This document shows positions 2,639 through 55,492 of a DNA stretch of 64,000 bases, one piece after another. Every line of letters begins with the position of its first letter. Within the stretch, counting starts at the first letter, position 1. The stretch comes from Bilabrum cf. latius (lineage: Eukaryota), in assembly GCA_965178125.1 (NCBI GenBank), contig OZ237749.1:868001-932000 (forward strand), in the 5' to 3' direction. The translations under genes were made by a program, and so were the position numbers. The notes beneath the pieces were generated by a model. It searched no databases. It worked only from the letters and a program-made list of their open reading frames with translations, and had not been told where the DNA came from.

Positions 2639-3003
2639 TGCACGAAAAGCCTGTACGTAGCACGCAACGGCAACTGCATGGTTCCGCCGGCGCCGGCAAA
2701 GCGATGCGCGGCGCCGAGCAGAATCTCGAGAAAGGCCAGCTATACTCCTACTGCACGTGATTTTGAGCAACTTGATACTACCTGCGCGTATTTGGTTTGA
2801 TATTATATTGAAAGAGGCTTCTGTTCGAAGAAAGTTTCGCTTTATGTCTCTAGTGAGAATTGATTCTTATTCGAAAGAAGTGCTCACTCACGAGCAAGCA
2901 CAAGCAGCTTTAGCGGGTAAATGGCTGCATTATCCACCGTCTTCATATCCTAATCTGTATTAAAATAAACTGTTCTTTTGAAAACCTCTATCTCTACTCG
3001 CAG

Positions 3004-6000
3004 GAAGCCCCAGACTTGACCGACAGTGATCCAGAACTCAGCGACAGCTCATGCACGATCTTTGCCTGTGATGGGTGTGACAAGAGTCTTGAGGGACAGG
3101 TCAGGATCACTTGCCTCATATGCAAATAGTTTGACTTGTGCTGCGAATGCTGCTTCAAGGTGAAGGTGCATGGCGCACGATTCGGCAAGCACACATCATC
3201 CCACCCTGTGCAGCGCTTCGAACCCGAAGCCGATACAGCTGCAGCCATTTCACAGAAATCTCACCGAGTTTAGAGAAGCGTCACAGATACTGGCATGCTT
3301 GACGGCCCTCATGACCCGCTCACGCTGCTGTTGGACAGCTTGGGCTCCGCATCAGGTCACGTGGAGCAGTTGCTCGGCATGCCTGGCCGACACGACGGAA
3401 CGCCTGATGTGAGTACAGTGGGGAGCACTTCCAACCTATTGGAAGGCCTGCAATCAATTTAGTCTATGGTTGATGCTCTTAAGACTGATGTGAGACAAGG
3501 CGATCAGACGACAGGTACTCCTGACGTAGACTAGTTTGATTGGGACTCGAACGGGTTGTGTGGCATTGATGACTTCTATGGCGGACAGAAAGGCAGTCTT
3601 CACTCCAACAGTGTTGATGAAGGGAGCATTTTTGCCGATATATTCGATGGCGGCGAGCTGCAGGGTGCTCAGGAGGCAGACACATCTGAGCTCCTTACTT
3701 CGCCGAGCGAGCACGGGGTGGACCATGAGCAGCCGCAGGAACAGGAGGACACAAGCCATAGCACAGGGGAACTTCACGAAGGCTCAAAGTACGTGGGAGT
3801 GTGCCCGCTTCGAGATGGCCGCTGGCGCGTAAAAGCTTACATCGGAGGGGACCTCAAGTACATCTGCGATGCCGACTCGGAGGACCGCGCGGCTGCCTAC
3901 CACGACGCCGTGACGCGGCACTTCCTGGACTCCCACGGCGGTTCCTCGGTGTAGGACCTTGCTAAGGCGATTGATAATGAGCTAGACGATGTACCGACGG
4001 CAGCCAGCCTGGAGAAGGACCATTTCCCTCAGGACAGTGCCGGCTTCATCTCTAGCATGGAGGACGCGTGCATGCAAGAGGAGAGCAAGACTGGAGGCGA
4101 CGATGCACGCCTGCACAGCAAGCGAGCAGGAAACTCGATCATGTCGCGTAGAACAGCAGATAGCACCCCTGATGCCGCGGACTACACGCTGAATTTCCCT
4201 CAGGGCAACCCAGAGGTGGACCGAATCATGAACTCCAACACGCTGGATACCCTCACTTCGAGGCATGAGCCCAAGGCGGCGTACGACAATGACTTCGACC
4301 TTCGCGAGTTCGAGCGAATTGTTCTCCGCACGCTGGTGGCGGCTAGTCCTGGTGGGATCGACGAGGACATGCCAATGGGAGACTACGACGATCTCGAGGA
4401 GCTGCGCGGAGAAGCCAACAAGGGGGATCTTGAGCAGGCTGGTCTCACCCCCAGGGAAAGACATGCCGACAACGGTCAGTCTCGCTCGTCTCCACGTGCG
4501 CGAAAGCTTGGCGGCCGCACAACCCAGGCGGAGACACTGAGCACGCCGCAGTTCTTTACGGCAGGTACAGCCGATCCGGCGATGCCTTGGCCCGCTCGCG
4601 TTCCGAGGAGAATTCAGGCAGCGTGGGAAGAGAAGCAGCGGCGGAGCAGTCATGCGTCTTACCAGCAACTCAACTAGGGGCCGAAGTGGGGCGATGATAC
4701 GCCTGAGCTGAAATCTATGCTACTTCTGCAGTCCGGGAACAGTGCCAGCATCTATGCGAGAGTCTTGTAGGACTTGGACATGTGTTTCGGGAGCTCGTAT
4801 GCCGGGTCTGTGATCCAAAAAGAGCGAGAGAGAGGAACCGTGCTCGCCGAAACTCTCATAGCAATGTCAGCTGGGGCGGCTACCGAGGAGCGGCACAGCA
4901 TCCAAGAGCTCGTGTCGAGGGCCCTGTCCAGCATGGGCACCTCCAAGCAGGCGTGGGAGCAGATCCTCGGATCTAGCGAGGCTGCGACATCGAGCTCGTC
5001 CAGTGCTGCCTCAGCAGGAGTGCCGAGCGCATTCGCTGGCATTGGGTCACGAAGTTAGAGCCAGCGAGTGAGGTTGCAATCAGCAGCGTCGGGGCCCCAA
5101 ATTTGCTTGAGTTCTCATCTGGTGCAGCACCAGACGTGGCAGCTTGGCGCGCAGCCGGATGCGCGTTTCAAGTCCGTGATCTCGGAAGGCGCCATGCAAA
5201 TGCCGGATGCATCAAGTGGCTGGGTGCAGATTGATGACACTCCTGCATCGCATCTTGACGTGCAAGAGCTGCTGGCATGTCACGGCTACCCTTCGAGCTG
5301 CAGAGAAACACTGCAAGTGCAGGCGTCGGGCACGCCAACGATGACATCGCTCGCAAGTCCAGGCGTCTAGGTGGTGTAGGCGATGTTGAAGCAGCTGCAG
5401 TTCGTGGTACGACGTCGAATCGTTGACTCGGACGGGTCGTGCAAGGATGCCGCCTCCACTGCCTTCCTTCAAGTGAAGCCAGAATCCATCACGGCTGAGC
5501 AGGTCGAGCTGGCGGCAGAGCATATGCAGCTCCACGGAATGCGTCGCATCCTTGGTATGTCAGCCAATGACTCGGGCAGCGCGCTGCAGCCTTGGCAGGT
5601 ACAGTCTGTCGGCGACCTCACACTTGGCGGCAGCTGGCTGGCAAGCGCAGCGTTGGGTCCACTGGCAAGGCGAGTGACGTCTCGGTTCCGCCGCACTACC
5701 TCACAGCTAGCAAAAGGCCTCGGTCTCAAGCACGCAGACCTGACTGCGTGGATTGAAGGGCTGCCTATGAACGTGCACCGGTACAGGCTGGTCTGCAAGG
5801 AAGTGCGTCGGTGGCTATCGGAAGTCCGGCGGTCTGGAGGGCTCTGGTCGCTGTCTGCGAGCCGCAAGCCGCTACCCGACCCAATCGTCTCGCAGAAAAA
5901 GGAAGCTGCCAAGCGAGCTGCTTCGATGAGCTCAAAGAAGGAATCAGGGCTCGATGCAGACCTCAGGGAGCTCCGCGAGCAAGCCACGGTGCAAGTCGCT

Positions 6001-8973: not shown

Positions 8974-11900
8974 TCAAGACAAGGTTCCGTATCGCCCCGG
9001 GCCCGAAGCAGGGGCCTATCGACTGCCACCGCCAGACCAGAATCGAAACCACGCCAGCCCTCCAGCTCTGCCGCCCCTACCGCTGCCATCTGCACCGACG
9101 CTGCCCCCGCCCCTTGCCACTCCGACTCCGTATGAAGAACCGCTTTCGAAGCACTGGCTGGATGAGGCATGGTCTTGACCGATCCCAGGACCGGCCTTCT
9201 TGTCCTGCCAGGGAGCGACGCCGTCATCTACCAATCGCGCAATAGCCTCGTGCGGGCTCCGCACTCGGCCACTAGCTACACGCCCCTCGGCCGCAGATGT
9301 TGTCCCAGTCCGCTTGCCCGTTGACCCCAGGCCCTCTGGGGTAGACTTCTGCTTCGGGCGGTCCTGAGGAGACGCAGCTCCTGCACTGACGCTCCTGTTG
9401 CGCGTGAAGGTCGGCACGGGGTGCTCCCAATACCCTTGCAGGCCGTCCCCACTCCCGATGTGGAAGCTGCTACTGCTGGCTTTGTGCTTCCCAACCCCCT
9501 CGATCCGGCTAGCAAGCAATGATGAAGCAGCAGAGGGCTTCGGTGCTACAGACGGCTGCCTCCCAACCAAGCCGCCGACCCCAGCCCCGACCCCGACCCC
9601 GCCACCTGCACCGCGCACAGCACCAGCGGTGAAGCCAGCCGGGTCACCAATACCTGCAATCCCCTTGGTGCCCCCTTCGGCGGCCATCCGCTGCGCGGCC
9701 ATGGCAGCTGCCAGCGCGATCGAGGCCTCCTCATCAGTGACCCCGCTGGAGCCCATTGCTGCACTAGATGCACCGCCTTCGTTCTGGCTGATACCATGGT
9801 TTCCCGCCCCACTCGGGCCGTCGATATCCTAGCCTGGTTCTGCAAGTCGCACTTCTAGTGGAGACGAGGCACCACTGCCCCTGGCAAAAGGGGCGGGCTT
9901 AGAAGGAACCGTTGAGCTGCAACCCGAGGTGTTGCCGGAATTGCTGCCCTAGTTGCTGCCCGGGCTGCTCTCAACAGCGGCTGCCCCGATGCCTTCAGGC
10001 TGCGGCACGGCGTGCTGCTTTGGTGAGGCCCTGAGCGATGCCTGCATGGGAGAGAAGAAGGTGGCACGGCGGCGCGCCCCAGACTGCACGGCCTTGCGCA
10101 GCTCCCTGCCCCTCAGCTTCTCGGCGCTGGCACCGTCGATGGCCAGGAGCAATGCGCCCTCGCGCACCAGGCCAGTTCTCGCCAAGGTAGACCCGGGGCG
10201 GACAGAGGTCACGACGATGCTCACGCCGTTCCTGACAGGGGTTTGCTGCAGGCCGAGCGTCAGCACGACCTTGCTGCTGACAGAGGCGGAGGCAGAGCCG
10301 GGGCCCTGCAGCGCCACCTCGTCCTCCGGCTCCAGCGACACGTCCACTTCTTCGTAGTGCGGAAAACTAGGAGACCAAGTGCCCTCTGTTTCATGACGCA
10401 GGGCCTGGGCTGCCTCATCACCAGCAGAAGTGCCTCGCACGGCAGTGAGGGGCTGGAGCGGGTGCGTTTCATCGCTGGGTTGCTGCCGGTCCGCGCCTCC
10501 ATCAGAGGCATCTCGTGAAGCAGCAGTTGAATGAGGGCCGCCGCCAGTATCTGGAGCCCCACCCTCGTCATTCTATTCCTCTGCATGGCCTGGGTGATCG
10601 ACACCAGCGACATCCCCTGAGGCAACTGCCGAACTTCCCATCAGCGGCTTGCCACCCAGCTGCCTCGCTTGCTGCATGCGCAACACCAGGTCCACAACCT
10701 GTCCCTTGCCCTCTTCTGCTGCCCGGCCAACGATTTGCGCGGCTGCTGCTGCCCTGCCGCGGTCGAAGCCCCACTCCACCATCTCCTGCGGACTCGTCAT
10801 CTTTCTTGTTGACGCACCGCTGCGGATCCAGTACACCCTCTCTGATTCAACAGTGCTGTTGGCTGCATCATCACCATGGGAACCCTACTGTTCACCCCTT
10901 TTCGTTGCTTGGTCAGTACCGGCAGCTGCTGGATCCCGCCCCGCTTGACGCCGCACGGTTCTCGTGACGAGTTGGTAGTGCAGGTTGGAGGGCGAGTGGG
11001 AGGGATACACAGGCAGCTCAACCACGTACACCCTCGGCAGCTGCCTGTACTTGACCGGCTATCCCTGGGCTGACACCCGGGCTACAACAGGCACGAGCTC
11101 GGGCGAGCTGACGAAGAGCCAAGAGCCCTCTGGCCCAATGCAGTTGTGCTTCACCTTGTCCAGTGAAAGCCTCATCTCGTCTTCCGCCTCCTGGGACAGA
11201 TGCACCCCGCGTACGGCGCCCCTGTCGGATATCCCAAAGAACAGAGTGCCCCCACGGCTGTTCAAGAACCCGACGAGGTACTTGACTGCTACTCGAGAGA
11301 TGGCCCGCGCTGGACCCCCGTGGAGGCCGCCTTTGAACTCGTGGGCCTCGTCCTCAGGCCACGGGGCAGCCGAGTCCAGTTCGTACCACCGCTTCAGCTT
11401 GGGTCCGCCCTATCCAAGCACCTGCTCACCCTCTGTTTGCAGTGAGACGACCGGGCCATCGTTGATGCGCACACGATGCGCTCCGTACCTCACCTCTCTC
11501 TCTTGCTGCTCCTCTTCGGCAGGTCCAGGTCCCGCACCACTGCTGGTAGACTTGGACTCTTCGCTTGGTGCGTCCGCACCTTGGGATTTAGAATGCTCTT
11601 GCCGCCCTGCGGAAGCCATAGCTTCGCCAGCAGCATCAGCATCCTACTACTCACCGCTGGCGATCTTCGCCTGTGTGGCGGGTGCATGGGATGCATGGGA
11701 TGACGTAGCCGGGTGTGAAGATGCGCCCCACAGTCTAGCTGACTCCCGAACAGCTCCCACTGCCCCCAAGTCCTCCACAGCCCACGCTAGGAGTGAAACG
11801 GCGGCCAACTCTTCCAAACTCGACTCAAAGGAATGGCTATTCTTGCCAAATGATCTGCTGCTAGCGCCTCGTGCTGACACATTCGAACCGAGCAGCGCGT

Positions 11901-25000: not shown

Positions 25001-27075
25001 GCCGTAGTACCGGATGATGTTGGGGTGCACCAGCCTCCCGCTCGACAGCACGTCCACCTCCTTCCTCGCGGCGGATTTCTCTTCGTCCGACATGCCGTGC
25101 ATCTTGAGGCACTTGATCACGACGTCCAGCCCGGACCGCTTGTGAGTCGCGAGCTGTGCCACGCCGAAGGATCCCTCGCCGATGATCCTCCTGAGCTTAA
25201 AGTCAGAGGGACGGAATCCCTGCATGCCATACCACGCGAGTGGAGAGTCCTCCTCGCCGGAGTCTTCGGCCCCTTTGGCTGCCGCTGCATGCGCCTCTAG
25301 CGCGTGCGAGGTGCCCTAGGGCAGCTCTCCTTCTGCTTCCGGGTCAAACGACATGTCCGCGGCCGAGCTTGGGTCCTCCGAATAGTGCACCTCCACCATG
25401 TCATCCAATGCATCGTCCTTTGAGTCCGACCTTCCGCCCGCTCTTGGGTCAGAAGCATAGGCAGCCGACTGCAGACCAGAGTACGCTGGCTAGCTAGGCT
25501 GCTCAGCCCCAGTGCCAAATTTGCCGTACAAATGCCCTTGATAGCCTACATGAGGTCCTGGCAGTATTTGTGGCCCTGCTTGCCCAGCTCGTTGCTGTGC
25601 TTGAGCCTGTGCCTGCGCTTGCATCATTGACCTCAGCTGCATCTCGCGCTCTTGCAGCAGCTGCACCACCGCCTGCCTCGTGCTTGGGTCTAGTGAATTG
25701 ATGTCGACGCCCTGCATTGCCATTGCAGCGGCTGGGTCCGGTGGAGGGGTATACACAGGGGTCGAGCCAGGCACAGTGCCCTGTTGCGGCGATCCGCCGG
25801 GCATTCCCATGCGTACTGGGGAGCCGTACGGCGGCGTACCGGCTGCGCTCCCAGTCGGTGGGGTGCTTGCAAGCCCCATGCTGCCATGTGGCGTGCTCGG
25901 GCTCGGGATGGCCACCTGTTGCTGGTGGTAAGGGTGCTGGTGGTAGGCTTGCTAGCCCGGAAGTGCTGGAGGCAGGGCGCGTCTCAGCCTCACGCCATCC
26001 TGGTCTTGGTACCCGCCGCCTGCTTCGAGAGACGACGTCTCTGGCTAGTAGTGCTGGTGCTATGCTGCGGCCTGCTGGTAGTCCCGGTCAGTGCGAGATT
26101 CGGACGAGAAGTGGCCTACGCCTTCCGGATCGGTACGACTCGACTCGTGGCTTCGGCTGCCCGCCGATGCTCCATTGCCACCGCTCCTTCGCTTCCTCGG
26201 GCTATTTCGCAGCCTTTCCATGTGCTTCTTATACGAGTCTGCTAGGTCGGATGATATCTCGGACTAAGCTCCGGCGGAGCTCCCCGGGGTGGAAGAAGGA
26301 CCCCTTCGGCTCCCCCTCGCCCCACTGCGGGGACTGGCACCAGGGTTGCCACCCCCACCCCCACCGCTCTCACTCCCGTTCGACTCGGGCAATGACCGGC
26401 CCCTCCTCATGGGGTTGGGTCTCGCGACTCCACCGCGCATCCTGACCTGTCGCCCCGCGCCTGCGCCACTTCCGCCCCCTCGACTCACGGGCCGGCTGGG
26501 GGACTCTTTGGAGGAGCGCTCGCTCCTGCTCCTACCCCCGCCAGCATCTGGGGTCCCTCTGCTCGCGGACCGACTGCTGTCTCGGCTGCCCTTCATGTGG
26601 CTGCGACTGCTCCCAGGCGGGATGTGCTCAGATCCTTGGCGACCACGCTGGGCCACCCCTGGGCTGCTGTATCTGCCCCCGCGACCCACGCGACCTCCGC
26701 TGCCGCTTCGTATAGCACTGCCGCCGGAGTCCCGCCGAGCCCGCCCGTCGACAGCAGCAGGCGGGGGCGGCGCACCCCCCTCGGATGGCAGGGGCGGAGG
26801 GCTCCCGATCCAAGAACCCCCCCCCGCCCCTCCAGACGCACTGCGCCCCCCGCTCGCCCCGCGGCTTGAATTCCGCCTCCCACGACCCGCGACTCCCTGC
26901 CGGCTGCTCGATACCCCCACCCCCGCTCTGTCCCTGCTTCCGGCCCGCTGCCCCTGCCTCTGCCCCTACCCCTACCAGCTACCCGCCCCGGCTCTCTGGC
27001 GCCCGTATCGCTTCCCATCCCCACCCGCACCTTCTGCCCCGCTGCTCTGAGAACCATGTGACCAAGACCTTCCCC

Positions 27076-27110
<35 letters not shown>

Positions 27111-27739
27111 ATGCCGGCGGGCAGAGCAGGCACATGGTCCCAACCAGGGGCCAGGGACTGGCGGTCTAGGGGCCTCGAAGGCAAGGCTGGGCTGCTGTGG
27201 GCGGATCCAGTCCCTGCATTCCCTGCCATGGCTGGTGTACCCGCCCTGCTAGGCGTTACAGCTCCGGCCAAAGACCTGGATGAGGCTCCGGACGGTGCTC
27301 CCACGCCTCCGCTGCTGCCTGCTGCGGCTGCTACCGAAACACCAGCCGCAGCACCACCGTAGTGCGGGGACTGCATTCCAGCTAGCTGGGCATAGTATGC
27401 GCCTGGAACACCGCTTGCACTCGTCAGGGGCATACCAGCGGGCGTACTATCGTCGGTCAAGCGCCCGGAAGAGTCCTCGCGGCTGTCGGTCACTCCGAGC
27501 GGAGCCCGAATGTGGGTCGGGACCCCCGCCTCCCTCCCGCCGCCGCCATAGTAACGAACCTGTGATCCAAGATTGCGAACGCCTCGGTGAGTCTGGCCAA
27601 CAGAAGATCCGGGACCAGGGACTGCGTGGCCGCCACTTCCGAGTCGTTGCTGCTCCGCCTCTGCTGCTGGTGAGTATTGCACCCCACGTCTGAACTGCCT
27701 GCCCGCGGCAGCAATTCGATCGTTAGCGGTTCTGTCCAT
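16008..27739 (-). CDS. NEK: Giant NIMA-related (NEK) Ser/Thr kinase, ~3,860 aa, with long low-complexity N- and C-terminal regions
   Basis: Kinase motifs IGEGSFG, VVIK, HPNIIRY, MEYADRGDL, ILHRDLKAQNIFL, KLGDFGIAR, IGTPYSLSPE, YNDKSDIWAL. One intron at 24647..24786. All flanking minus-strand fragments from 27739 to 16008 are in frame and separated only by TAG; ends at TGA 16008-16010. Confidence 0.85.
27077..27109 (-). repeat. (CAG)11 microsatellite encoding polyglutamine in the NEK N-terminal region
   Basis: Pure ctg repeat on the + strand, in frame with ORF 26972..27739 (MQQQQQQQQQQQR). Confidence 0.9.
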
Positions 27740-28066
27740 CTGATTGACCTATCTGGATGCGTCGCAAGCAATCCTGACGGGTTTCCAGCAACCGAGGCCT
27801 AGCTGGATGGTAACAACAAAGGACAACGAGCAGCAACGCAGTTTTTCGCTTGTCACGCCAAAAGCAAAGTAAGTAAATTCACTTATGTCACGGCAATTAT
27901 GGATGCGTTAAGAGCTTTCGCTCCCCGGTGGGACCAAGAATCCGTCGAGCAACTGGGCGCCGCGCATTATGATGTTCCGCATTCCTTTGGCGAAGGAGAA
28001 CCACTGAAACTGCCCTGCTATCAAGCAGACGGCGAATTCCTGTGTTTTTTGTTGTTAGATCGTAGT

Positions 28067-29048
28067 ATGTCTGGCTGGGGGGCATAGCGTGGCGGCAAGA
28101 AAGGTGGGAAAGGTGGGAAATCTGGTTGGGGAAAGCGTGGCGCGGCAGCTGGTAGATCATCAGCCAAGGGAGCCGGCGAGGACGCTGGTAGCAGCCGTGC
28201 AGTTGACGAAGAAATCGGCCAGGATACACGATCACTAATGCGTCTCAGCAGAGCGATTGCTGCTACCTCGGAGCAAGTTCGCAGAGGCACTGGATCTGTG
28301 TCGAGATTGTGAGAGCGCTGATGTTACTGTAGATTCACTACGCAACTAGTTCGCACTGAATGCTAGCCTGTCGTCTATGTATCTCAACAGCGGTCGCAGA
28401 CAGGCCCAGGTCAAGAGCGGGAAGGATCTCGTGCGAACCATGGTGCAGAAGCAGAAGACTCTGTTGCCGCAGTGGGTGGATGAAGCAGCATCAGAAGACG
28501 CGAAGGCTGGCCGGCGGCGAGCCATGCAGCGAGTCGCAACTCAAGCGAAGCAGGCGATTGAGGCGTTTGTAAGCGAAGAGGAGAAGGCCCAGCGCGCCGA
28601 GAAGGAGGCGGGCACTCCGGTGGCCAGCGACAGGGGCGCCGCGGCCCCCTTGCTAGGTTCCGCGCAGGACGCATCGGGCGACGCTGAGGCGCAGGCTGCC
28701 CTCGCCGACGCCGAGCAGAGGCTTCGGGTGGCGGAGCTGACCGGTGACTTGGCGGCGGAGAGGGAGGAGCAGATCGACCAGATCTACCAGGACACGGCCG
28801 AGGTGCACGAGATCTTCCAGGATGTGGCCGAGCTCGTGGAGGAGTAGGACGACATGGTGAGGACCATCGAGTTCAACGCAGTGGACGCGAGGGATCGGAC
28901 CGAGAAGGGCGTGGATGACCTGGACAAAGCGGCCGAGTACCAGGGTGCCTTCAGCACCAAGATCATCTGCTTTATCATCATCCTGGTGCTCATCGTGGCG
29001 GGGGTGGGCGGGTACTTGGGCTACAGGTTCACGCACAATAAGAAATGA
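28067..29048 (+). CDS. STX: Syntaxin (Qa-SNARE) with C-terminal transmembrane anchor
   Basis: SNARE motif EREEQIDQIYQDTAEVHEIFQDVAELVEE[TAG]DDMVRTIEFNA, then TM helix IICFIIILVLIVAGVGGYLGY; ends at TGA. Probable ATG 28067 and intron 28309..28366. Confidence 0.9.
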
Positions 29049-30808: not shown

Positions 30809-33017
30809 ATGCAAGTCGATTTATTGACTCCATTGGGCGCAGAGCCTTCATCAAATGGTGAGTGACGTCTGCTTTGACCTTGGTCCGCGCTGTGCCCATT
30901 TGTAGTTTGCCCAGCTATTGAATGTACATTCCACGAGATCCGTACCTGCCGTTTTGCTCTCCCACAGGCACTGATGGCCCGAATGCAGAGGAGCAGCACG
31001 AGTTTGCTTCAATTGCTACAATAACAGCAGTGAGTCGAAGGCACGCATGTTTTGGCTCTTCTATCATCGTTTGTTTAGAATTTGCACCTCATTCGACTGA
31101 CCGTTCGTGCGATTCGCAGATGTTCATAGTGGCTGCATCCATCGTGTTCGGGTACTTTGCCAAGAAGTATCATTTTTACTACTTGCCCGAGTCGGCCTTC
31201 ACACTGCTGGTAAGAAAAATGCTGCACCGGCAAGCTTCAGCGCCGCATGCTTTGCTCCGAGCTTTAGGCCAGCGCTGCTGTGTTCCTGTTCGCCAACGTG
31301 CTCGCAGCTCGGCCTCCTCATTGGTGGTCTCGCATGGTTGATTCTAGCGGGCAAGGACGACGAGGAGCTGGAGACCCTCAAGTTCTAGCCGGACACTTTC
31401 TTCTTTCTCCTGCTCCCCCCCATCATCTTTGAGGCGGGGTACTCGCTCCGACGAAAGAGTTTCTTTAGCAACTTTAGCACAATCTTGCTATTTGCGGTCC
31501 TTGGAACCATCATCAGCACGTTCGTGATCGGATTCTCCATGTACGGGTTCGCCAAGGCCGGCCTGGTGCCCACCATGAACACAGAGTCTCCCTTTCAGGC
31601 CCTCATGTTCGGTGCCCTCATCTCTGCCGTGGATCCGGTGGCCACGCTCGCTATCATGGGCTCTCCGCAGCTCAACTGCGACAAGCTGCTGTACTCGCTC
31701 GTGTTCGGCGAATCCGTGCTGAACGACGCAGTGGCCATCGTGCTCTTCCACACCTTCTTGGGCATGACCGAGAGCGGCCTCGACCTGAGCAAGGCGGGGT
31801 CCTACTTCGAGCTGCTTGGCAAGTTCATAGGCATCTCCATCGGGTCCATCATCCTGGGAGTGCTCATCGGGCTGGGGGCATGCGTGGTCTTCAAGTTCAC
31901 CAACCTGCGCAAGTACCCCAGCAAGGAGATCACGCTGCTCATCGTGTTCGCCTACACGTCCTACGCGCTCGGGGAAGCGGCGCAGCTCTCGGGAATCATG
32001 AGCATCTTCTTCACCGGTATCGTGCTGTCTCACTACAACCTTTACAACATGTCGGTGGAGACGAGGGGCGCGGCGCAGTACGTGTTCAAAGCCCTAGCGC
32101 ACACCACTGAGACAGCCGTGTTCGCGTACATGGGCGTGACCATTTTCACGGGGGGATACAAGACGTGGAAGTACGTAGGAGCTTCCGTGCTGGCGCTGCT
32201 GTGCTGCCTGGTGGCGCGGGCCTTCAACACCTTCCCTCTGGCCAACCTGGCCAACCTGGGCAGGAAGAAGAGGATCCCCTGCAACATGCAGTTCCTCATC
32301 TGGTTTGCCGGTCTACGAGGGGCCATCGCATTCGCACTGTCGCTCAACATGCCCTGCAGCGCAGACGCGAACGGCAACTCCAACTGCAACGAGGTCTGGG
32401 ACAACGATATCATCGTAACCATGACCCTGTTCATCGTGGTGTTCACCACGGTGGTGGCGGGCGGATTCACAGAGCCCCTGCTGACCAGGATGAACCTGAG
32501 GACCGGAGATGCCGAGGAGGACGAGACGGAGGAACTCACGGCCACGCTGGTGCGCAAGGCGGCCAGCAACCGGAAGCGGGGCGGGCTGCACGCGTGGTGG
32601 CACAACGTGGACGAGCAGTACATGAAGCCGTGCTTCTCCAGCGAGGCGCGGAGCGGGGGACCCAGCGGTTCGTTGGTTGGGATTTACACCTCCTCGGGAG
32701 GGGGGGGAGGAGGCAGCGGCTCGGGGATGGAGGGCAGCAACGGTGGCAGCGGGTACGGGCAGGGCACCGGGATGCTGCGCGGGTCCACCGGTGGATACGG
32801 GTCCACGACGAGCTCGCAGGACGATGACGGAGACCTCGGTGGGGGCACAGCGCAGGGGGCCGCTCTGATGGGACAGTCCATGACCGGGCTGGGGAGCGTG
32901 GGGGCCAGTCTGCCAGCTTCGGCCGCCGCAGCCGCGGCCATCTCGGGCGACATTGGCACGTACCAGGCACCCGAGGACGGGGACGGCGACCTAGGCGGAG
33001 CGGCGGACGCCCTGTGA
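30809..33017 (+). CDS. NHX: Na+/H+ exchanger (CPA1; NHE8/NHX-like)
   Basis: Motifs FFFLLLPPIIFEAGY, ISAVDPVATL, FGESVLNDAVAIV, WFAGLRGAIAFAL. Introns 30858..30967, 31030..31119, 31210..31307. One TAG at 31386 (LKF*PDTFF); ends at TGA. Confidence 0.93.
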
Positions 33018-43307: not shown

Positions 43308-43742
43308 GTGCCAAGGCTCCGTGGCAAACGCTGCCGTGCTTTGCGGTAAGGATCCATCATCAAATCTGAATTGTGGAGCTTGGCGTGTGCAGAAAATAAG
43401 TCATTATATTTGTGTTTTTTGTCGTCGCAAGACAACACCCAAGACCACCACACCAGCACGGCCTGACCGGGTCGTTTGCGACCAAGCCACCCATCCTCCA
43501 CCGCACCAATAATGATCTCACAGGATCAAAAGAAGAATTTGTGGCACCGTCCAAGCGGTGCAGCCGCAGCCACGCGTTCTACCCGCTCTTGGATCAAGTA
43601 CCCTTCAAGGTACAGCCCCTAGGACCGAAAATTCAAGCGATACTTCCAGGGCCACAGACCGAGCCAAGCTTTTGCACTGCCATGAGCATTCTGACTTCAT
43701 CGCAGCCTTATAAGCCGGCCCAACGATGCACCCATAGTTCGC

Positions 43743-46206
43743 TTACCTTCGGAAGCCGCCGCCGCCGCGGCCACGGAACCCGCCGCCCCGTCCTCCCCCG
43801 AAGGACCTTCCCCTGCCTCCGCCGCGACCGCCTCCCCCGCGCCACCCGCCGCCGCCACCACGGCCACCGCCGCCACCACGGCCGCCTCCACCGGCATCGG
43901 GCCTAGCCTGAAGCTCAGGAAGCTTCTTGGGGATGGACAGCCTGGTTCGGTTGTCCTCCATGGCCGCCTTGAAGGCGTCCACGTGCTGCGCGGGCACGTC
44001 AAACACCGCGGCTGTCGAGTCCTTGGTGATTGTGATGCCGCGCACCTGGTTGGAGACGTCCATGGGCACCTCGTTGTTGAGCAGAGCAAACACCCCGCCT
44101 GCGCCCCTTAGTTCGTACGGCGCCGAGATCATGAAGGCCAGGAAGCCCTCCTGCGCGGAGAGCAGAGAGCGGGGGGCCTGCTTCTCCGTGAAGCCACCGA
44201 TCACCGCAAGCGCCGAGGCCATGGCCTTGACCGGGTCGTTGGTCTCGAGGTACTCGGCGGCCTGCTCCTCGAACACGCCCAGCATATCTCCGTGAACGCC
44301 CTCGAGTGCCTGCACCGCATGCTTGGCTGCCGACCGCACCATGTCTGCCATCTGGGGCACGCCCACTCGCTGGAACTCGATGCCGACCTTGTGCTCGATG
44401 GCCTTGATCAGGTGCGCCTGCTGCCGCTTGTACAGCGTGATGCACACGCCCTTGCGCCCCGCGCGGCCAGTCCGGCCCGATCGGTGCACGTACGTGTCGG
44501 TGTCCGCGCGCCCGCTGAAGTTGAGCTCCGGGGGCTGCACGTTCACCACTAGGTCCACACCGCGGATGTCCAGGCCGCGGGCGGCCACGTCGGTGGCCAC
44601 CAGGCACCTGACCCTTCCCGACCTGAAGTTCTGGAGGGTGACCTCGCGCTGGGCCTGGGGGATGTCACCGTGCAGCGCCTTGCAGACGGTCTTCATGGAC
44701 TTGTCCTGGATGAGGTCGTTGCAGTCGCGCTTGGTCTGGCAGAAGATGATGGTGCCGCCCTTGGGCCCCGCGTGCACCTTGATGAGGTCACTGCAGGTGC
44801 TGCCGCGGGCCTGGTAGGGGCACTCGAGGCACAGGTGCTTCACGTCCTTGGAGGCCTGCTGCTCGCTGTCGCCCACAAGGTCCACCGAGAGCGGGTCGTC
44901 CATGTACCGCTGGGCCACGCTCATGACCCAGTCGGGCACGGTGGCAGAGAACAAAAGGATCTGCACCTTCTTGCCCACGAACGCAGCGGCGGCGGAAGTG
45001 GAGGAGGACGAGGAGGCCTTCATGGAGGCCGCTGCCTGTTCCCCGAACTTCATGACCTTGGAGGACTGCGGGGGGGGCTTGGCCTCCCTGCCCTTGAGAG
45101 AGGGCATGTGCGCCAGGATGAACTCGATGTCGGGCTAGAAACCCATGTCCAGCATCTGGTCGGCCTCGTCGAGGATGAGGTGCTCGCACATGGTCACGTC
45201 CAGGGACCCCTGTTCCATGAGGTCCTTGACGCGGCCCGTCGTGCCGACGATCACGTCCACGCCCGAGCGGAGCTTGGACTTCTGGGGGCCGATGGCGGTG
45301 CCGCCGTACACGGTGAGGGTCTCGATCCCCGGGGCGCTCGTGTCAAAGTCCACTGCCACCTGCTTGGCGAGCTCGCGGGTGGGCGCCAGGCAGATGACGC
45401 GAGGCTTCCTGCCGTACGCGGGGCGGCGGGCCTTGTCTGCCGCCAGCAGCGTCTCGATCACCGGCAGCGCGAAAGCAAGGGTCTTTCCCATACCAGTCCG
45501 TGCGCGTCCAATCATGTCGCGGCCTTTTCGGATGTCTGTGTAGGTCATGGCCTGGATAGGAAACAAGGTCACGATGCCGCGCTTGGCAAGGGCAGCCTTG
45601 GTGGGCGCGCTGCGAAAATAGATGAGAGGGGAATGAGAATAATTTTAAAAATGGTAACTCTACTCGTTTCGTTCTCATCTGCTGGCCGAAAGTGACTTTC
45701 TAGCTGAAGGAACACCGGCGAGGTACTTCAGCACGACGGTTCACTTCCAATGGCGGAAGGCGACCAGGACCGCCCACTGCACGATTTAAGTGAATTCACG
45801 CTGCGGAGCGATTCTGTACTAACCTAATATCAAACTTGTCGACGGAGACATTGCCTGGCACCACTGGCTTGCCATCGTCCTTCGAGGCACTCGACTTTCC
45901 GTTTTCAGAAACTCGGGCCTTCTTCGCACTTCTTTCGTCTTTGGACGGGCTTCTAACGAATGACGACGATCCATTTTGACTGAATGTTGTGCTAGAAGGG
46001 GCGGACGATCCAGCGCCAGACGCAGCTGCAGAAGCATCGGAACCGGCATCGGAACCGGAGTCCTCCAGTTCGTTGCGCTTGCGCTTCTTGCCAGACGACG
46101 AAGACTTGCTCTCGCGCTTGCTTGACTTGGACTTCTTCTCCTTCTTTTCTTTCTTTTCCTTCTTGAGGGCTCGCTTCAACTCTTTCTCTGCAGCAGTCGA
46201 CGGCAT
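43743..46206 (-). CDS. DDX21: DEAD-box RNA helicase of the DDX21/DDX50 type, with GUCT-like domain and RGG tail
   Basis: LFPIQ, ARTGMGKT, PTRELA, DEAD, SAT, HGDIPQ, ARGLD, HRSGRTGRAG, RSLL...AVFDVP, RGG tail; Lys-rich N-terminus. Intron 45610..45823; TAG at 45135 (LDMGF*PDI). Confidence 0.92.
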
Positions 46207-50457: not shown

Positions 50458-51855
50458 ATGGCATCAGCCTCTTCCTTTGAAGACGCGAAAGCATACTTGC
50501 AAACGAAGGACGGCGAGGGGAGCGTGTATGATCACCTTTCCGAAGTTGTTCTCAAGCTGATTGAGGAACGACCAGGGGATGCGCTGAAATAGCTCGAACA
50601 TATTTCGTCTGTTGTCAAAGCGAGCACTGTAAAATCTGATTCCGCCTCCTCCGGCGCCGGGAAGTCTGATGATCCCGACGCGGTTGCGGCTCGCGCCGCT
50701 GCGGTAGCCAGGCTGGACGAGGCGCTTGCTGTGCTTAAGGTACCAGGTGAGGATGATGAGCCGGGGGAGTTGGGCGAGGGCCTGCAGGATTTGACAGATG
50801 CGGCAAACTACTTGGAATGGGCCGGCGTGTCCCTCGGCCGGGAGGAGATGTTTCGGCTGCACCTGAGCCTCAAGTCTCTGTCGGCAACGACGAGTGCGCG
50901 GGACCTCCGATTCTTTGGCAAGCTGCAGGGCATGGATGGCGACTACATCGTGGCGGAGGGCAAGATCGACGCCCCGGACGAGGAGGAAGAGGGCGACAAG
51001 GATGCCCTGGGCAACGTGATCGAGCGCACTGGCGAGGCCGGTGCCAACCTCTGCACCTACTGGGTCTGCCCGCACGTGGGCGGCAAGTGGACCCAGCTCC
51101 CCCGCGTGACTCCGCACCAGATCATCGTCTCGAGGCAGCTGAGGAGGTACCTCAGGGGCGACCTGGAGGCCGAGGTGGGCGGACACCCGCCCTTCCCCGG
51201 CAACGAGGCGGCCTACCTGCGAGCCGTCATCGCGCGGATCGCGGCCGACACGGCGGTGGCTCCCGCGGGCCACTTCCGCCGCGTGGAGGACGACGAGTCC
51301 CGAGACATCGAGGTGGTCCCGGATGACGAGTACGCGGCGGAGGACATTGCCAGTGCCGATGGGTGGGTGCACACCGCCCTGCAGTTCGGTGCCAAGAGCG
51401 GACGGACGGCGCCCAACCCCAAGGAGGACGAGGAAGAGGAGGGCGGTGACGGGGAGGAGGAAGAAGAGGAGCCCGCAGAGCCCCTCAAGGCCATCGCGGA
51501 AGACGCGGGCGAGGGCGAGGAGAACCCGCCCTGGCAGGTGAGGGCTGTGCCCTCCGCCGGCATCCCTGACCCGGAGCCCGGGCTGGTGGTGGTCAAGTCG
51601 ACGAAGTGGCCAGGAGCCGTTGCGGTTGGGTTTGGCAGGCGATTTGCGTGCGCGTACGTCGGATACGGGATCGAGGCAGCCAAGGCGCCCTACCAGCCTG
51701 CGCTCCCGGCTCCCGTGCCGGCCGAGTTCACCGTGGCGGCTTTCAACCCAGCGGCCGAGGAGGCTGTCTTTGCAGAGCAACCAGACGTCCTGGAGGACCC
51801 CAACGCGGGCAAGCCAGCGGAAGGCGAGGAGGGCGAGGAGGAGGACGACGAGTGA
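50458..51855 (+). CDS. RSPH4/6: Flagellar radial spoke head protein RSP4/6 family
   Basis: N-terminal AKAYL..VYDHLSEVVLKLIEERP..[TAG]LEHISSVVK; LRFFGKLQG..DYIVAE; GEAGAN..YWV; WTQLPRVTPHQI..SRQ; PPFPGNEAAYLRAVIARI; VKSTKWPGA; YVGYG. Ends at TGA. Confidence 0.92.
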
Positions 51856-52052
51856 TTGATTGAGTGTTTGATGAAGTGATCGCCGGCGGTGGATTGCCTC
51901 GGCTTGGAGCAAAGCTGCGCGTGCCACTGAGCTGAGATATCGAGTGCGGGAGTTCCAATGCAGCTTATCGTGTAATTCACTACATAAAATTCAATAACAC
52001 AGCCCCCAAACGCGGGTTGCTATACCACGCCCTCATCCCAAGCCTGTCTACG

Positions 52053-52171
52053 GCCATTTGGCGAAACGTCGTCGGCTTGCAGGTGTGCGGCTCAATGCGC
52101 ACGGAGTTTCCAGCCATTTGGGGAAACGTCATCGGCTTGCAGGTGTGCGGCTCAATGCGCACGGGGTTTGC
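52053..52171. repeat. Two-copy 60-bp tandem repeat between the convergent RSP4/6 and sulfatase 3' ends
   Basis: gccatttgg.gaaacgtc.tcggcttgcaggtgtgcggctcaatgcgcacgg.gttt at 52053 and again at 52113, with few mismatches. Confidence 0.9.
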
Positions 52172-52200: not shown

Positions 52201-54264
52201 TCAGTCGTACTCGAGATCCACTTTGGATGCCTCGGACAGCTCCGCGGCCGACATGCTCCCAGGGCGCGGGCAGCTGCCCGTGTAGCAGTGGTCCACGCAA
52301 AGCCGTCCCGAGGGCCAGAAGGAGCTCTCCTCGTGCTGCGAGTCCATGAACTCGCCCATGCTCTTCAGCACGGGCGCATACTGGGGCTGCCCCGCGAGGT
52401 TGGTCTCCTCCCCGAGGTCCGCCGTGGTGTTGTACAGCTCCCAGGACACGTCGCTGTCGGGAGTGGGAGACGTGTAGTTCTTGTTCATGCGGATGCCGTG
52501 CATGCCGTCGGTGGAGAACACAGACTGCGCCCAGCCCGCGCCGTACCCGAAATCGTTGCCCTGATGGCAGAACTCCCAGTAGATCTGGCGGTCGGCCGCC
52601 TCCACCGGCAGCTGCTCGGAGACAGCCGATGGTGACCCGGACCGGAGGGCGTTCGTGCTGCTCGAGTCCTCGTGCTGGTCGCCACTGCCAGGGTACAGTG
52701 CCTGCTTGAAGGACACCCCGTCGTGCTTGGGGAGCGAGGCAGGCTGGATGCCGGCCAGGTCAGCCATGGTGACAAGCAGGTCGGGATAGTATGCCAGCCA
52801 GTTCGTGCGCTGTCCTGCCATCGGCGAACCGGGTGCGCGGACGATGAAGGGGCTGCGGACTCCTCCGAGGTACACGCTGCGCTTGTAGCCTCTGAGCTTG
52901 CACGCGGAGTTGAAAGAAGGCGTGACGGGTGCCTCTGGGCCGTTGTCGCTCGCTGCAGTTGAAAAGGGCGTGGTCAGGAAGGGAAGGGCATAGATCTCGT
53001 GACGTGAGACAACCATTGGGAGAGCAAATGAGCGACGCTGCAACGGTGCGGTATGCAGCATGTAGACAGATGAAGCGTGCATCCGAGCCGTGACGGTCGC
53101 TGCCCGACCAAACAACACTGCCCGGAATCATCTGCATCATCATAGAGCTAGATGCTAGACGCGGTTCCTCCTTCAGGCTTTGCTCACTCATGATGACCAC
53201 CGTGTTGTCGTCCAGCCCGCTGTCCTTGAGCTGCTGCAACACTGCACCCATGGCCGCGTCCATCTGCGTGACCGCGCTGGCATAGTCCACCTCCTCTTCC
53301 TTCCACTTGCCCTCGTACTGCTTGTACTCTGGCGAGACGAAGGGCACGGCGTAGGGCCCCGCCGGGATGGACTTGGTGGGGTGCTTGCAGTTGCCCTCGT
53401 GGGGGGTCACCACGGACAGCCAGGCGAAGAAGGGCTTGCCGTCCGCGGCCCGCTCCTTGATGTACTCCTTGGTCTGATTCACGAAGAGGTCCTGTGAGTA
53501 GGTGCCGCAGGCGTCCTGGTTGCCCTACACGGCAAAGGTCGAGTTTTGCTGGTACAGCGTCGCAGGGTACCAGTCGTGGCACTGGACCTACGTCTCGTAC
53601 TGCATCAACGAAGGAAAGAGGAGCTGGCTCGCGGTTCATACGCCTCAGCAATCATCGAGCCCGAAGGATGTTTGAAGCGTCGTACAACGGTTTGATGAGG
53701 CGTAGCACCGATGGTGTGCTACCAGAGCAGACTGTCTTTGCGATGCCGGCACCACTAAGCATATGTACATGACACAATACTCACGCCATAGAACTTGTCG
53801 AACTTCTTGGCGGTTGGATACCCCGTTGATGTCTGATTACCAAGCCCCCACTTGCCGAACAGCCCGCTGTGGTACCCTGCCAGTACCTCAGGAATTGAAG
53901 GCTCGCCTGCCTTGAGGGGACAGGTCGATCCATCGTTTTGCCGGAGCGAGACGTGGCCCGAATGCAGCCCAGTGATCAGCGTTGAGCGAGAAGGCGCACA
54001 CACAGGAGACGAATGGCCAAGGTCAAAAATTAGGCTCTCCTTCGCGAACGCATCCAAGTGCGGGGTTTGAATATCAGGGCCGTATGAATCTGGGTTTAAA
54101 CCCAGCTACTTTCCGTAAATGTTCGGTAAGTTGCAAATCCCGAGATCGTCGGCAAGCAATAGCACGAAGTTTGGCTTGTTTGGCAGACCGGAGGAGGCTG
54201 CCTGAGACAGAAAAAAGATGCTAGCCGAATACAGATAGCGAATCAATCGCGCATTGCTTAGCAT
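52201..54264 (-). CDS. Secreted formylglycine-dependent (S1) sulfatase
   Basis: Signal peptide; KPNFVLLLADDLG, TPHLD, CAPSRSTLITG (CxPxR), FGKWGLG, SDNGP, LRGYKRSVYLGGVRSPFIV, WELYN...EETNLA. Introns 53600..53784 and 52953..53187; internal TAGs; ends at TGA. Confidence 0.92.
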
Positions 54265-54375
54265 ACTTGATTGTTCAGGTGTTTCTTCACTTGCGTCCCC
54301 AAGCTTGTGTAGTAGTCACACTATCGAGACTTGTGCTGCTGGCTGGGGCGGGAGCCCCGCAGCAGGCCATGCCGA

Positions 54376-55049
54376 TCAGAGTTCCCCTTCGGAGCTCGAC
54401 ACGTAGTACACGCACTCCTGCTCCATAGCCTCCACCACCTTCACCTGGACGCTCTTGCCCGCCTCGAACCCCTCCACGATCTGCCGGTGGTGCTCGGCCA
54501 TGGGCCCCGCCTCGCCGTCCAGCTCAAGGCCCTCCTTCGTCTCTCCCGCCTCGTTGATCAGCGAGCACGTCATCACGCCATCGTCTGCCTCCTCCTCCAC
54601 CATCAGCACGGTCCAGTGCGAAGTGGTCACGACCGGCTGCATGATGCAGTGGGTGGTCTGGCAGGTGCCCATCGCGGTTTCACCCGAGAAGATGCACTTG
54701 CCCTGCAGCACGGCCTTGGCATGGCCGTGCTTGGATGTCACAACACTGGTGACACTCGATATCTGCGATATGCGAAGCGTTTGCAAGATGGAATGGCCGC
54801 ATGTGCTCGGTGGTGGGATGGAGATTCACGATTCACGCTGGTCAGGACTGGGGCCGGGAACGGCTTGGCGGCAGTGGCAACTGCTTCGCGTGGGGCCGTT
54901 CTGGACAGCGCGAGAAGGCCCAAGCATCCCCGACTACGCAGCATTGTATATCTCACCTTGCATGGCTTGTCTTTGAGCATCACATAGTCTCCCTTCTTGA
55001 GAGCCCCGGCTCGGACAGGCACTTGCAACTCGGCAAGACTCGCGCACAT
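54376..55049 (-). CDS. eIF5A: Divergent translation factor eIF5A-like protein
   Basis: PVRAGALKKGDYVMLKDKPCK|ISSV..SKHGHAK..IFSG. Intron 54763..54956; ends at TGA. Confidence 0.85.
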
Positions 55050-55492
55050 GCTTGCGGGAGGGCTCGCCCGCGATCGGTTGATTTTGTATTCTTCGTAGGC
55101 TGCGCCTCTTGTTCGGTTGAGCGTGTGGCTTCGAGCGGCTCTTGTGCTCGATTGCTTGCGTGCTATTACTCGATAGCGAAGGATGAAGTGTGGGGAGCGG
55201 CCACTGCACCGGAGCAGATTGGCTCCGATCCTCCCAAACCGGAACCGCCCTCCCGTTCCGATGGCCGTTCCGAGCAGCTGGATGCGTCCAGACAACTCGC
55301 GATGGGAGCGATACAATCGACCACTAGTGCAATGTTAATAGAAGCAGCATGCAAATCAAGCAACACAAGTCCGATTGAGTCAGCTCCAGACCGATTCCGA
55401 TCAAGAGATGTGGATGCCTCCCCCAACCACCGGCCTGGCCTACCTGCTGCGCGGGGCTGCGCGTGCATGGAGACACCGTGCGGGTCGATCGA

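Follow-up and report, generated by a model that had tools for sequence, protein, structure and literature searches.

In the 64,000-nucleotide (nt) stretch of Bilabrum cf. latius contig OZ237749.1 that was analysed here (the window), the codon TAG is translated as a sense codon, and TAA and TGA terminate. Comparison with homologous proteins and with a close relative makes glutamine the likely meaning of TAG. The analysis centres on a long minus-strand gene for a Ser/Thr kinase, which its motifs allow to be read as a member of the NEK subfamily, and on a short repeat within this gene in which TAG and CAG alternate. A preliminary description of the DNA had drawn three conclusions from this repeat, namely that TAG is translated, that the segment is coding and that Gln is the likeliest meaning. 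All three hold; the argument from the repeat is weak, since Gly and Arg alternate there as well, and the proposed test of codon context is marginal.

The window has a G+C content of 62%. With standard stops its longest open reading frame (ORF) is 909 amino acids (aa); when TAG is read through, the longest frame reaches 2886 aa, and frames of 2008, 1955, 1425, 1322 and 1255 aa are also obtained. Codon counts, starting at the first ATG, cover ten gene models (14461 codons), in which every TAG was read through by construction. The coding frame of these models contains 73 TAG, no TAA and no TGA, whereas the other two frames contain 86 and 92 TAG, 21 and 45 TAA, and 220 and 287 TGA. The absence of TAA and TGA is partly due to the choice of frame; frames this long cannot arise by chance. 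At the 14 gene ends that were checked, TGA is found 11 times, TAA three times and TAG never. The radial spoke head protein matches its mouse counterpart through to the latter's final residues, and its TGA comes just after them; the end of the helicase coincides with the end of the relative's helicase. In-frame TAGs are located inside the kinase, SNARE, helicase, Na+/H+ exchanger (NHE) and ZZ domains. With 73 TAGs in frame against no TAA or TGA, and with TGA or TAA at every one of the 14 gene ends, TAG thus counts as a sense codon. The putative Gln family then comprises 718 codons (504 CAG, 141 CAA and 73 TAG), of which TAG represents approximately one tenth; TAA is rare in this GC-rich genome.

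The spliced frame of the kinase gene comprises 3863 codons with 18 in-frame TAGs and neither TAA nor TGA. The kinase domain is interrupted by an intron, and long low-complexity arms extend at both sides of it. The ORF at 24629-27907 (minus strand) ends in the first half of the domain, and the ORF at 16011-24668 (minus strand) opens with the second half; the Pfam Pkinase profile accordingly matches once per exon, over positions 2-132 (E 1e-33) and 130-263 (E 1e-18). Once this intron, the only one seen in the gene, is removed, the exons join in frame after ..NIFLQ, and the spliced product contains a complete catalytic domain including the HRDLK and DFG motifs. The domain sits downstream of eight TAGs and contains one more.

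Contigs from public runs, none of them recorded as RNA, were aligned to positions 15800-28400; the statements that follow concern the rows listed, beyond which there are 178 more. In run X5, one contig of 10768 letters lies on 15961-24645 and 24786-26868 without a letter difference, TAGs included. Run X6, from the same study, has the identical splice joint (24645/24786), and an unspliced 71-kb contig of run X1 spans the kinase region. From the splice joint we read X5 and X6 as RNA. The tool label for X5, 'RNA? (probably DNA)', speaks against this reading, and among the rows listed no X5 contig covers 26869-27120, the interval that holds the repeat: contigs end at 26868 and restart at 27121, which is no evidence either way. 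As the spliced contig retains the TAGs, U-to-C editing is not indicated. No letter differences were seen among runs X1, X5, X6 and X7, and hence no CAG/TAG polymorphism among these runs. The X5 contigs that neighbour the kinase gene, at 15800-15905 and 28024-28308, have depths of 270 and 47, compared with 19.5 for the gene itself. Among the rows listed, uncovered gaps at 15906-15960 and 27921-28023 flank the gene in this run, as expected for separate transcripts.

The repeat segment is coding. Relatives were collected by three word-index searches and one exhaustive search, which yielded orthologue fragments at 78-96% identity. One of these fragments, the 253-aa predicted protein P0132, shares the start Met of the kinase gene and can be aligned in this frame all the way to the repeat, at 232 of 263 positions and with no gap that breaks the frame; since it follows this frame from the same Met as far as the repeat, the segment that carries the repeat is coding. 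An intronic or untranslated segment, which the preliminary description had named as the contrary outcome, was not found: the segment lies in the open frame of 3863 codons, and the relative is colinear with it.

The repeat occupies positions 26945..26980 (minus strand), corresponding to codons 254-265 of the kinase gene. The preliminary description had given its sequence exactly: the reverse complement, read directly, is AGC TGG TAG GGG TAG GGG CAG AGG CAG GGG CAG CGG, which in the frame of the long ORF is S-W-q-G-q-G-Q-R-Q-G-Q-R (q = TAG). It is a short, imperfect hexanucleotide microsatellite, given as (GGGGYAG)n and encoding (Gln-Gly/Arg)n. Tandem Repeats Finder did not report the array at score 40; at score 30 it returned a period of 6 with 5.0 copies, 84% matches and a score of 39 at 26943-26973. 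When both strands were scanned for at least four consecutive (YAG NGG) units, one run was found in the window, which is this repeat. The alternation of CAG and TAG had been taken as a sign of synonymy. The Gly register, however, reads GGG, GGG, AGG, GGG, CGG, and AGG and CGG show that non-synonymous changes are tolerated in the same repeat; because Arg codons replace Gly in two of the five units, the swap of CAG and TAG need not be synonymous. The change from CAG to TAG is a transition that is expected by mutation whatever TAG encodes. The repeat is an ordinary microsatellite in the disordered, low-complexity N-terminal arm of the protein, and its interest lies in the genetic code that it reveals.

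Three more TAGs near the repeat, at 26062-26060, 26047-26045 and 25954-25952, are real and in the same frame; the lowest base of each codon (26060, 26045 and 25952) had been noted before. Their contexts, in a tract rich in Gln, His and Tyr that lies within the spliced contig, are YQQAAA[q]HQHY[q]PETSS and LPG[q]QAYHQHPYHQQQ. Just upstream of the repeat, a poly-Gln run has 11 Gln residues here and five in P0132; the contigs of runs X1 and X5 both break at this (CAG)11.

The support for Gln comes from homology, namely from the zero layer of syntaxin and the relative's orthologues, and not, as had been claimed, from an argument that can do without it. Of all sites in the window, the one most diagnostic of what TAG means is the TAG at 28845, in an ORF with a Pfam SNARE match (E 6e-9) that encodes a syntaxin-like Qa-SNARE with a C-terminal membrane anchor. 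Syntaxin-1A, 13 and 7, Sso1 and Sso2 were matched by phmmer over residues 175-261, anchor included; the site itself was compared in the syntaxin-1A alignments only. With TAG masked as X, '...evheifqdvaelveeXddmvrtiefn...' aligns to '...elhdmfmdmamlvesQgemidrieyn...' of syntaxin-1A, which places the TAG at the zero-layer Gln, a residue that we take to be Q226 in the numbering of syntaxin-1A. The SNARE motif and the membrane anchor run on in frame past this TAG. The zero-layer Gln is conserved and defines the Q-SNAREs, as stated in the relevant passages of PMC7465790.

Two other sites can be compared with many homologues. At the TAG just past motif II of the DEAD/GUCT helicase, 119 homologues carry A (41), R (20), K (18), V (18), Q (17), S (3), E (1) and D (1), with no L. 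At the TAG in the kinase catalytic domain, 138 homologues carry R (63), K (30), N (13), Q (10), L (6), A (5), H (3), G (2), S (2) and C (2), with no E. Both columns admit Q and nearly exclude E and L. When BLOSUM62 scores are summed over all the sites compared with homologues and relatives, Q ranks first, E second and K third.

The relative's proteins in the database were called with the standard code and are all cut at stops; six of the fragment ends coincide exactly with TAGs here. P0129, P0130 and P0131 are encoded on one 2540-nt contig of the relative and are colinear with a single ORF here, so that the relative reads through its stops as well, and both the colinearity and the 78-96% identity persist on either side of these stops. 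P0125 and P0126 share one 1444-nt contig of the relative and are pieces of a single gene cut at in-frame stops. Opposite the TAGs here, relatives carry K, Q and Q, then G, G, G and S, the S in a gapped low-complexity stretch; opposite the relatives' stops, the codons here are for Q, K and E and, within the repeat, for a further Q. The residues opposite TAG amount to four Q, three K, three G, one E and one S, or to six Q if P0132 is aligned without a gap. A TAG that is unchanged in the relative is invisible in this comparison as an aligned residue. By a rough calculation, Gln at about half of the changed sites is roughly what one synonymous transition set against seven or eight non-synonymous changes would give.

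Within the repeat, the relative reads ..GKRYGRQRAGSASW-Q-R-Q-G-stop, compared with ..GKRYGRQRAGAGSW-q-G-q-G-Q-R-Q-G-Q-R here. In an ungapped alignment, both TAGs face a Gln of the relative, and the relative's stop faces CAG. With the four-residue gap introduced by BLAST, the relative lacks two repeat units, and its stop still faces CAG. Judged from these protein alignments, TAG and CAG exchange in the Gln register of the repeat between species under either alignment. A comparison between strains had been put forward in the preliminary description, and the exchange of TAG and CAG within the repeat of the relative's ORF bears it out.

The preliminary description had further proposed to test whether in-frame TAG is enriched next to CAG and CAA, which was examined in the window only. 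In this respect TAG resembles a Gln codon, but with n = 73 its lead over GAG and CTG falls short of significance. A Gln neighbour (CAG/CAA) is found beside 12 of 73 TAG, compared with 96 of 504 CAG, 20 of 141 CAA, 78 of 596 GAG, 55 of 458 CTG, 27 of 362 AAG and 10 of 134 TTG. A naive-Bayes classifier on the neighbour residues at ±1 and ±2 was tried as a decisive test and rejected. In the controls Gln came out on top in all 20 draws of CAG and in 10 of 20 draws of CAA (third or better in 17 of 20). For AAA it fails, with Lys ranked 9th to 18th, and it is unreliable for minor codons. For TAG it ranks Gln 8th, below E, V, T, A, L, M and K, and the log-odds of the top ranks (E, V and T) are near 0. 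This result counts against the argument from context and not against Gln.

Several observations weigh against Gln. The syntaxin site is the sole TAG on a near-invariant residue. Among the close relatives, 8 of the 12-14 residues opposite TAG are not Gln, among them the K that the more distant sequence P0134 has at the TAG of the kinase domain; protein ORFs were compared, so that we infer rather than read that the relative's stop codons are TAG. In distant homologues, the ZZ site is occupied by E in Ada2 and by D in BIG and HERC2, the exchanger site by D in both NHE6 and NHE9, and the radial spoke site by I in mouse and human and by L in Chlamydomonas. On the six distant sites alone, the BLOSUM62 sums do not tell Q (4.26), E (3.96) and D (4.39) apart; the TAG of the pectinacetylesterase falls in a gap of the alignment to NOTUM. 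The excess of Gln beside TAG is small (the 12 of 73 given above), and the classifier puts seven residues ahead of Gln.

Most of these observations would also fit if TAG encoded another amino acid, chiefly Glu or Lys and less so Leu or Ser, with the alternation in the repeat being a C-to-T route in a tolerant sequence. The acidic residues at the ZZ and exchanger sites, the I and L of the radial spoke homologues, the relatives' K at three TAG sites and E at one, the order given by the classifier and the swap of Gly and Arg in the same repeat can all be cited for it, and UAG as Leu, Ser or Glu is reported, in the relevant parts of PMC5304391 and PMC11687900, for nuclear codes that keep UAA or treat it differently. 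The zero-layer TAG, in contrast, fits Gln, and in the helicase and kinase columns E occurs in 1 of 119 and 0 of 138 homologues, L in 0 and 6, and S in 3 and 2. Leu is found opposite none of the 12-14 TAG sites in the relatives, where Gln is the commonest residue. For Lys, AAG has a Gln neighbour less often than TAG does. Another amino acid is therefore unlikely, with Glu and Lys together somewhat less probable than the whole of that class and with Leu, Ser or a dual meaning taking up what remains. When homologue sites, relatives and context are weighed, and the usual reassignment of UAG to Gln is taken into account, Gln emerges as the likely and best-supported meaning of TAG in these sequence comparisons, with one near-invariant site and a small comparison with relatives behind it.

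The chance is slim that TAG has two meanings, Gln inside genes and terminator of some genes by position or context, as described in other stop-reassigned protists. The observation that favours it concerns the gene at 8977-14841 (minus strand; 1955 codons), in which the last TAG (9016-9018) stands 13 codons ahead of the TGA and in which the relative's fragment P0129 ends at that TAG too; this TAG might still terminate the gene. Moreover, the gene models read every TAG through, so a TAG terminator in a low-complexity tail would escape notice. All 14 gene ends checked are nevertheless TGA or TAA, the radial spoke protein matches the mouse end before its TGA, and the end of the helicase is shared with the relative. 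A reading of TAG as a normal terminator in a segment that is not translated (intron, untranslated region or pseudogene), for which the openness of other frames and the listed RNA rows without 26869-27120 might be adduced, is already contradicted by 3863 codons without TAA or TGA, by a kinase domain past eight TAGs, by a spliced contig that retains TAGs, by a SNARE motif and anchor that follow a TAG, and by colinear ORFs of the relative that continue past the stops with 78-96% identity before and after them.

If TAG means Gln, UAG would be decoded as Gln in cytoplasmic translation, and genes would end at UGA and UAA. With TAG and CAG synonymous, exchanges of C and T in the Gln register would be neutral, and the two codons would mix within the repeat and between species. 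Such decoding would presumably involve a transfer RNA (tRNA) for Gln with the anticodon CUA and a release factor eRF1 that no longer recognises UAG. A tRNA scan of the 64,000-nt window found no tRNA gene, and eRF1 is not among the Pfam matches of the window ORFs.

The code is probably a further case of the kind in which UAG is Gln and UAA and UGA are stops, which is rare but known. The assignments of NCBI table 15 are identical to this code. In the relevant sections of the two sources, it was first shown in the fornicate Iotanema spirale (PMC5304391) and is also described in Protocruzia tuzeti and twice within the phyllopharyngean ciliates (PMC11687900); the latter also lists, as other variants that affect UAG only, Leu in a rhizarian and Ser in Scotinosphaera. 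As in Iotanema, only UAG is reassigned here, UAA and UGA are absent from the frames and end genes, and Gln is the best-supported meaning; unlike there, the genome has 62% G+C and very long low-complexity genes. NCBI table 6 (ciliates, dasycladaceans and hexamitids) shares UAG as Gln, with the Gln family gaining a member by a transition between C and U. In that code, however, UAA is also Gln, whereas here TAA is absent in frame (0 of 14461 codons) and ends three of 14 genes, so that UAA is not reassigned here. The rhizarian exLh (UAG as Leu) and Scotinosphaera (UAG as Ser) resemble the present case in that UAG and UAA no longer share one fate and UAA is kept as a stop, as the parts of PMC5304391 and PMC11687900 that treat them report; they differ in that Leu and Ser fit poorly here, where the zero-layer site fits Gln. 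The repeat itself is comparable to interrupted poly-Gln/CAG microsatellites, being slippage-prone, placed in a low-complexity arm and beside a (CAG)11 whose length varies between species, with the difference that TAG serves as the interruption, something that only a changed code allows.

A quick single-gene tree of the helicase places the query within a clade of ten sequences (Shimodaira-Hasegawa-like approximate likelihood ratio test, SH-aLRT, 97). The clade adjoins a group with oomycetes and a brown alga and lies away from plants and opisthokonts. A placement near the stramenopiles is, on this tree, tentative. A metagenome scan with the helicase brought up no close relative; the nearest helicases, on three GC-rich contigs (L001, L004 and L006), are 43-48% identical, 48% at best. 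Their ORFs reach up to 1051 aa without TAG and show no comparable gain when TAG is read through; these organisms appear to use the standard code, and the absence of TAG from their long ORFs suggests that the code change is confined to a narrower lineage. A literature search of limited reach found no GC-rich non-ciliate organism in which UAG is Gln, and a prior description is possible. An independent and undescribed origin of the code in GC-rich flagellates outside ciliates and fornicates, perhaps near or within the stramenopiles and shared by at least two species (78-96% protein identity), can be proposed only tentatively.

Nuclear codes in which UAG alone is reassigned are known from few lineages, and they bear on whether eRF1 and tRNAs can separate UAG from UAA mechanistically. 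A further case in a GC-rich genome would be informative, with TAA rare and TAG at about a tenth of the Gln codons. The close relative would allow a codon-by-codon test of the spread of such a code by mutation pressure and by neutral drift between CAG and TAG. There is also a practical consequence: gene callers that use the standard code cut such genes at every TAG, and all of the relative's database proteins that were found are fragments of this type.

Table 1. Positions of the kinase gene, its repeat and the TAG codons compared with homologues
Feature	Position	Strand	Basis or remark
NEK-like Ser/Thr kinase gene	16008..27739	-	ATG 27739, TGA 16010-16008
Intron of the kinase gene, 140 nt, GTGAGT..TTGCAG	24647..24786	-	joint 24645/24786 in runs X5 and X6
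TAG in kinase catalytic domain (VHR[q]RILHRDLK)	24833..24835	-	alignment to homologues
Q/H/Y-rich tract with three in-frame TAGs	25952..26062	-	within spliced contig
Second TAG of the repeat	26966..26968	-	codon 258 counted from ATG
First TAG of the repeat	26972..26974	-	codon 256 counted from ATG
Poly-Gln run (CAG)11	27077..27110	-	just upstream of repeat
Syntaxin-like Qa-SNARE ORF with C-terminal membrane anchor and TGA end	28239..29048	+	Pfam, phmmer
TAG at zero-layer Gln of syntaxin-1A	28845..28847	+	phmmer, TAG masked as X
TAG in ZZ-type zinc finger (CLICK[q]FDLC)	3127..3129	+	PDB search
TAG in Na+/H+ exchanger (LKF[q]PDTFFF)	31386..31388	+	NHE6/NHE9 alignment
TAG in DEAD/GUCT helicase, just past motif II (DEADQMLDMGF[q]PD)	45135..45137	-	homologue column
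TAG in radial spoke head protein (DALK[q]LEHIS)	50590..50592	+	homologue alignment

The DNA of the window is nuclear and comes from a GC-rich, intron-poor, flagellated eukaryote. The Pfam matches of its ORFs comprise the two kinase-domain halves, the DEAD/GUCT helicase, the Na+/H+ exchanger, EH, ankyrin/JmjC, Schlafen AlbA_2, an anoctamin/OSCA-like channel, SNARE, pectinacetylesterase, the radial spoke head protein, sulfatase, eIF-5A and ubiquitin hydrolase. A PDB search with the segment of the anoctamin/OSCA-like channel gave no matches. Pfam assigned no family to the 2008-aa ORF, and its ZZ-type zinc finger surfaced only in a PDB search of the segment. This finger, at 2857-3300 (plus strand), precedes the first ATG of that ORF (2008 codons), so that the gene must begin further upstream or in another exon.

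In the GC-rich kinase stretch, frames other than the coding one likewise stay open over hundreds of codons. ORFs of 300-700 aa in antisense or overlapping positions (43695-45692 on the plus strand, 50467-51990 on the minus strand and others) have no Pfam match and lie opposite real genes; such long ORFs are a chance product of the 62% G+C and not genes. The interval 52053-52169, between the radial spoke and sulfatase genes, contains a twofold repeat of a 60-bp unit (94% matches, score 213). The sulfatase (52204-54315, minus strand) and eIF-5A (54379-55334, minus strand) genes are each split over several ORFs and, unlike most genes of the window, probably contain introns; the eIF-5A gene is without an in-frame TAG.

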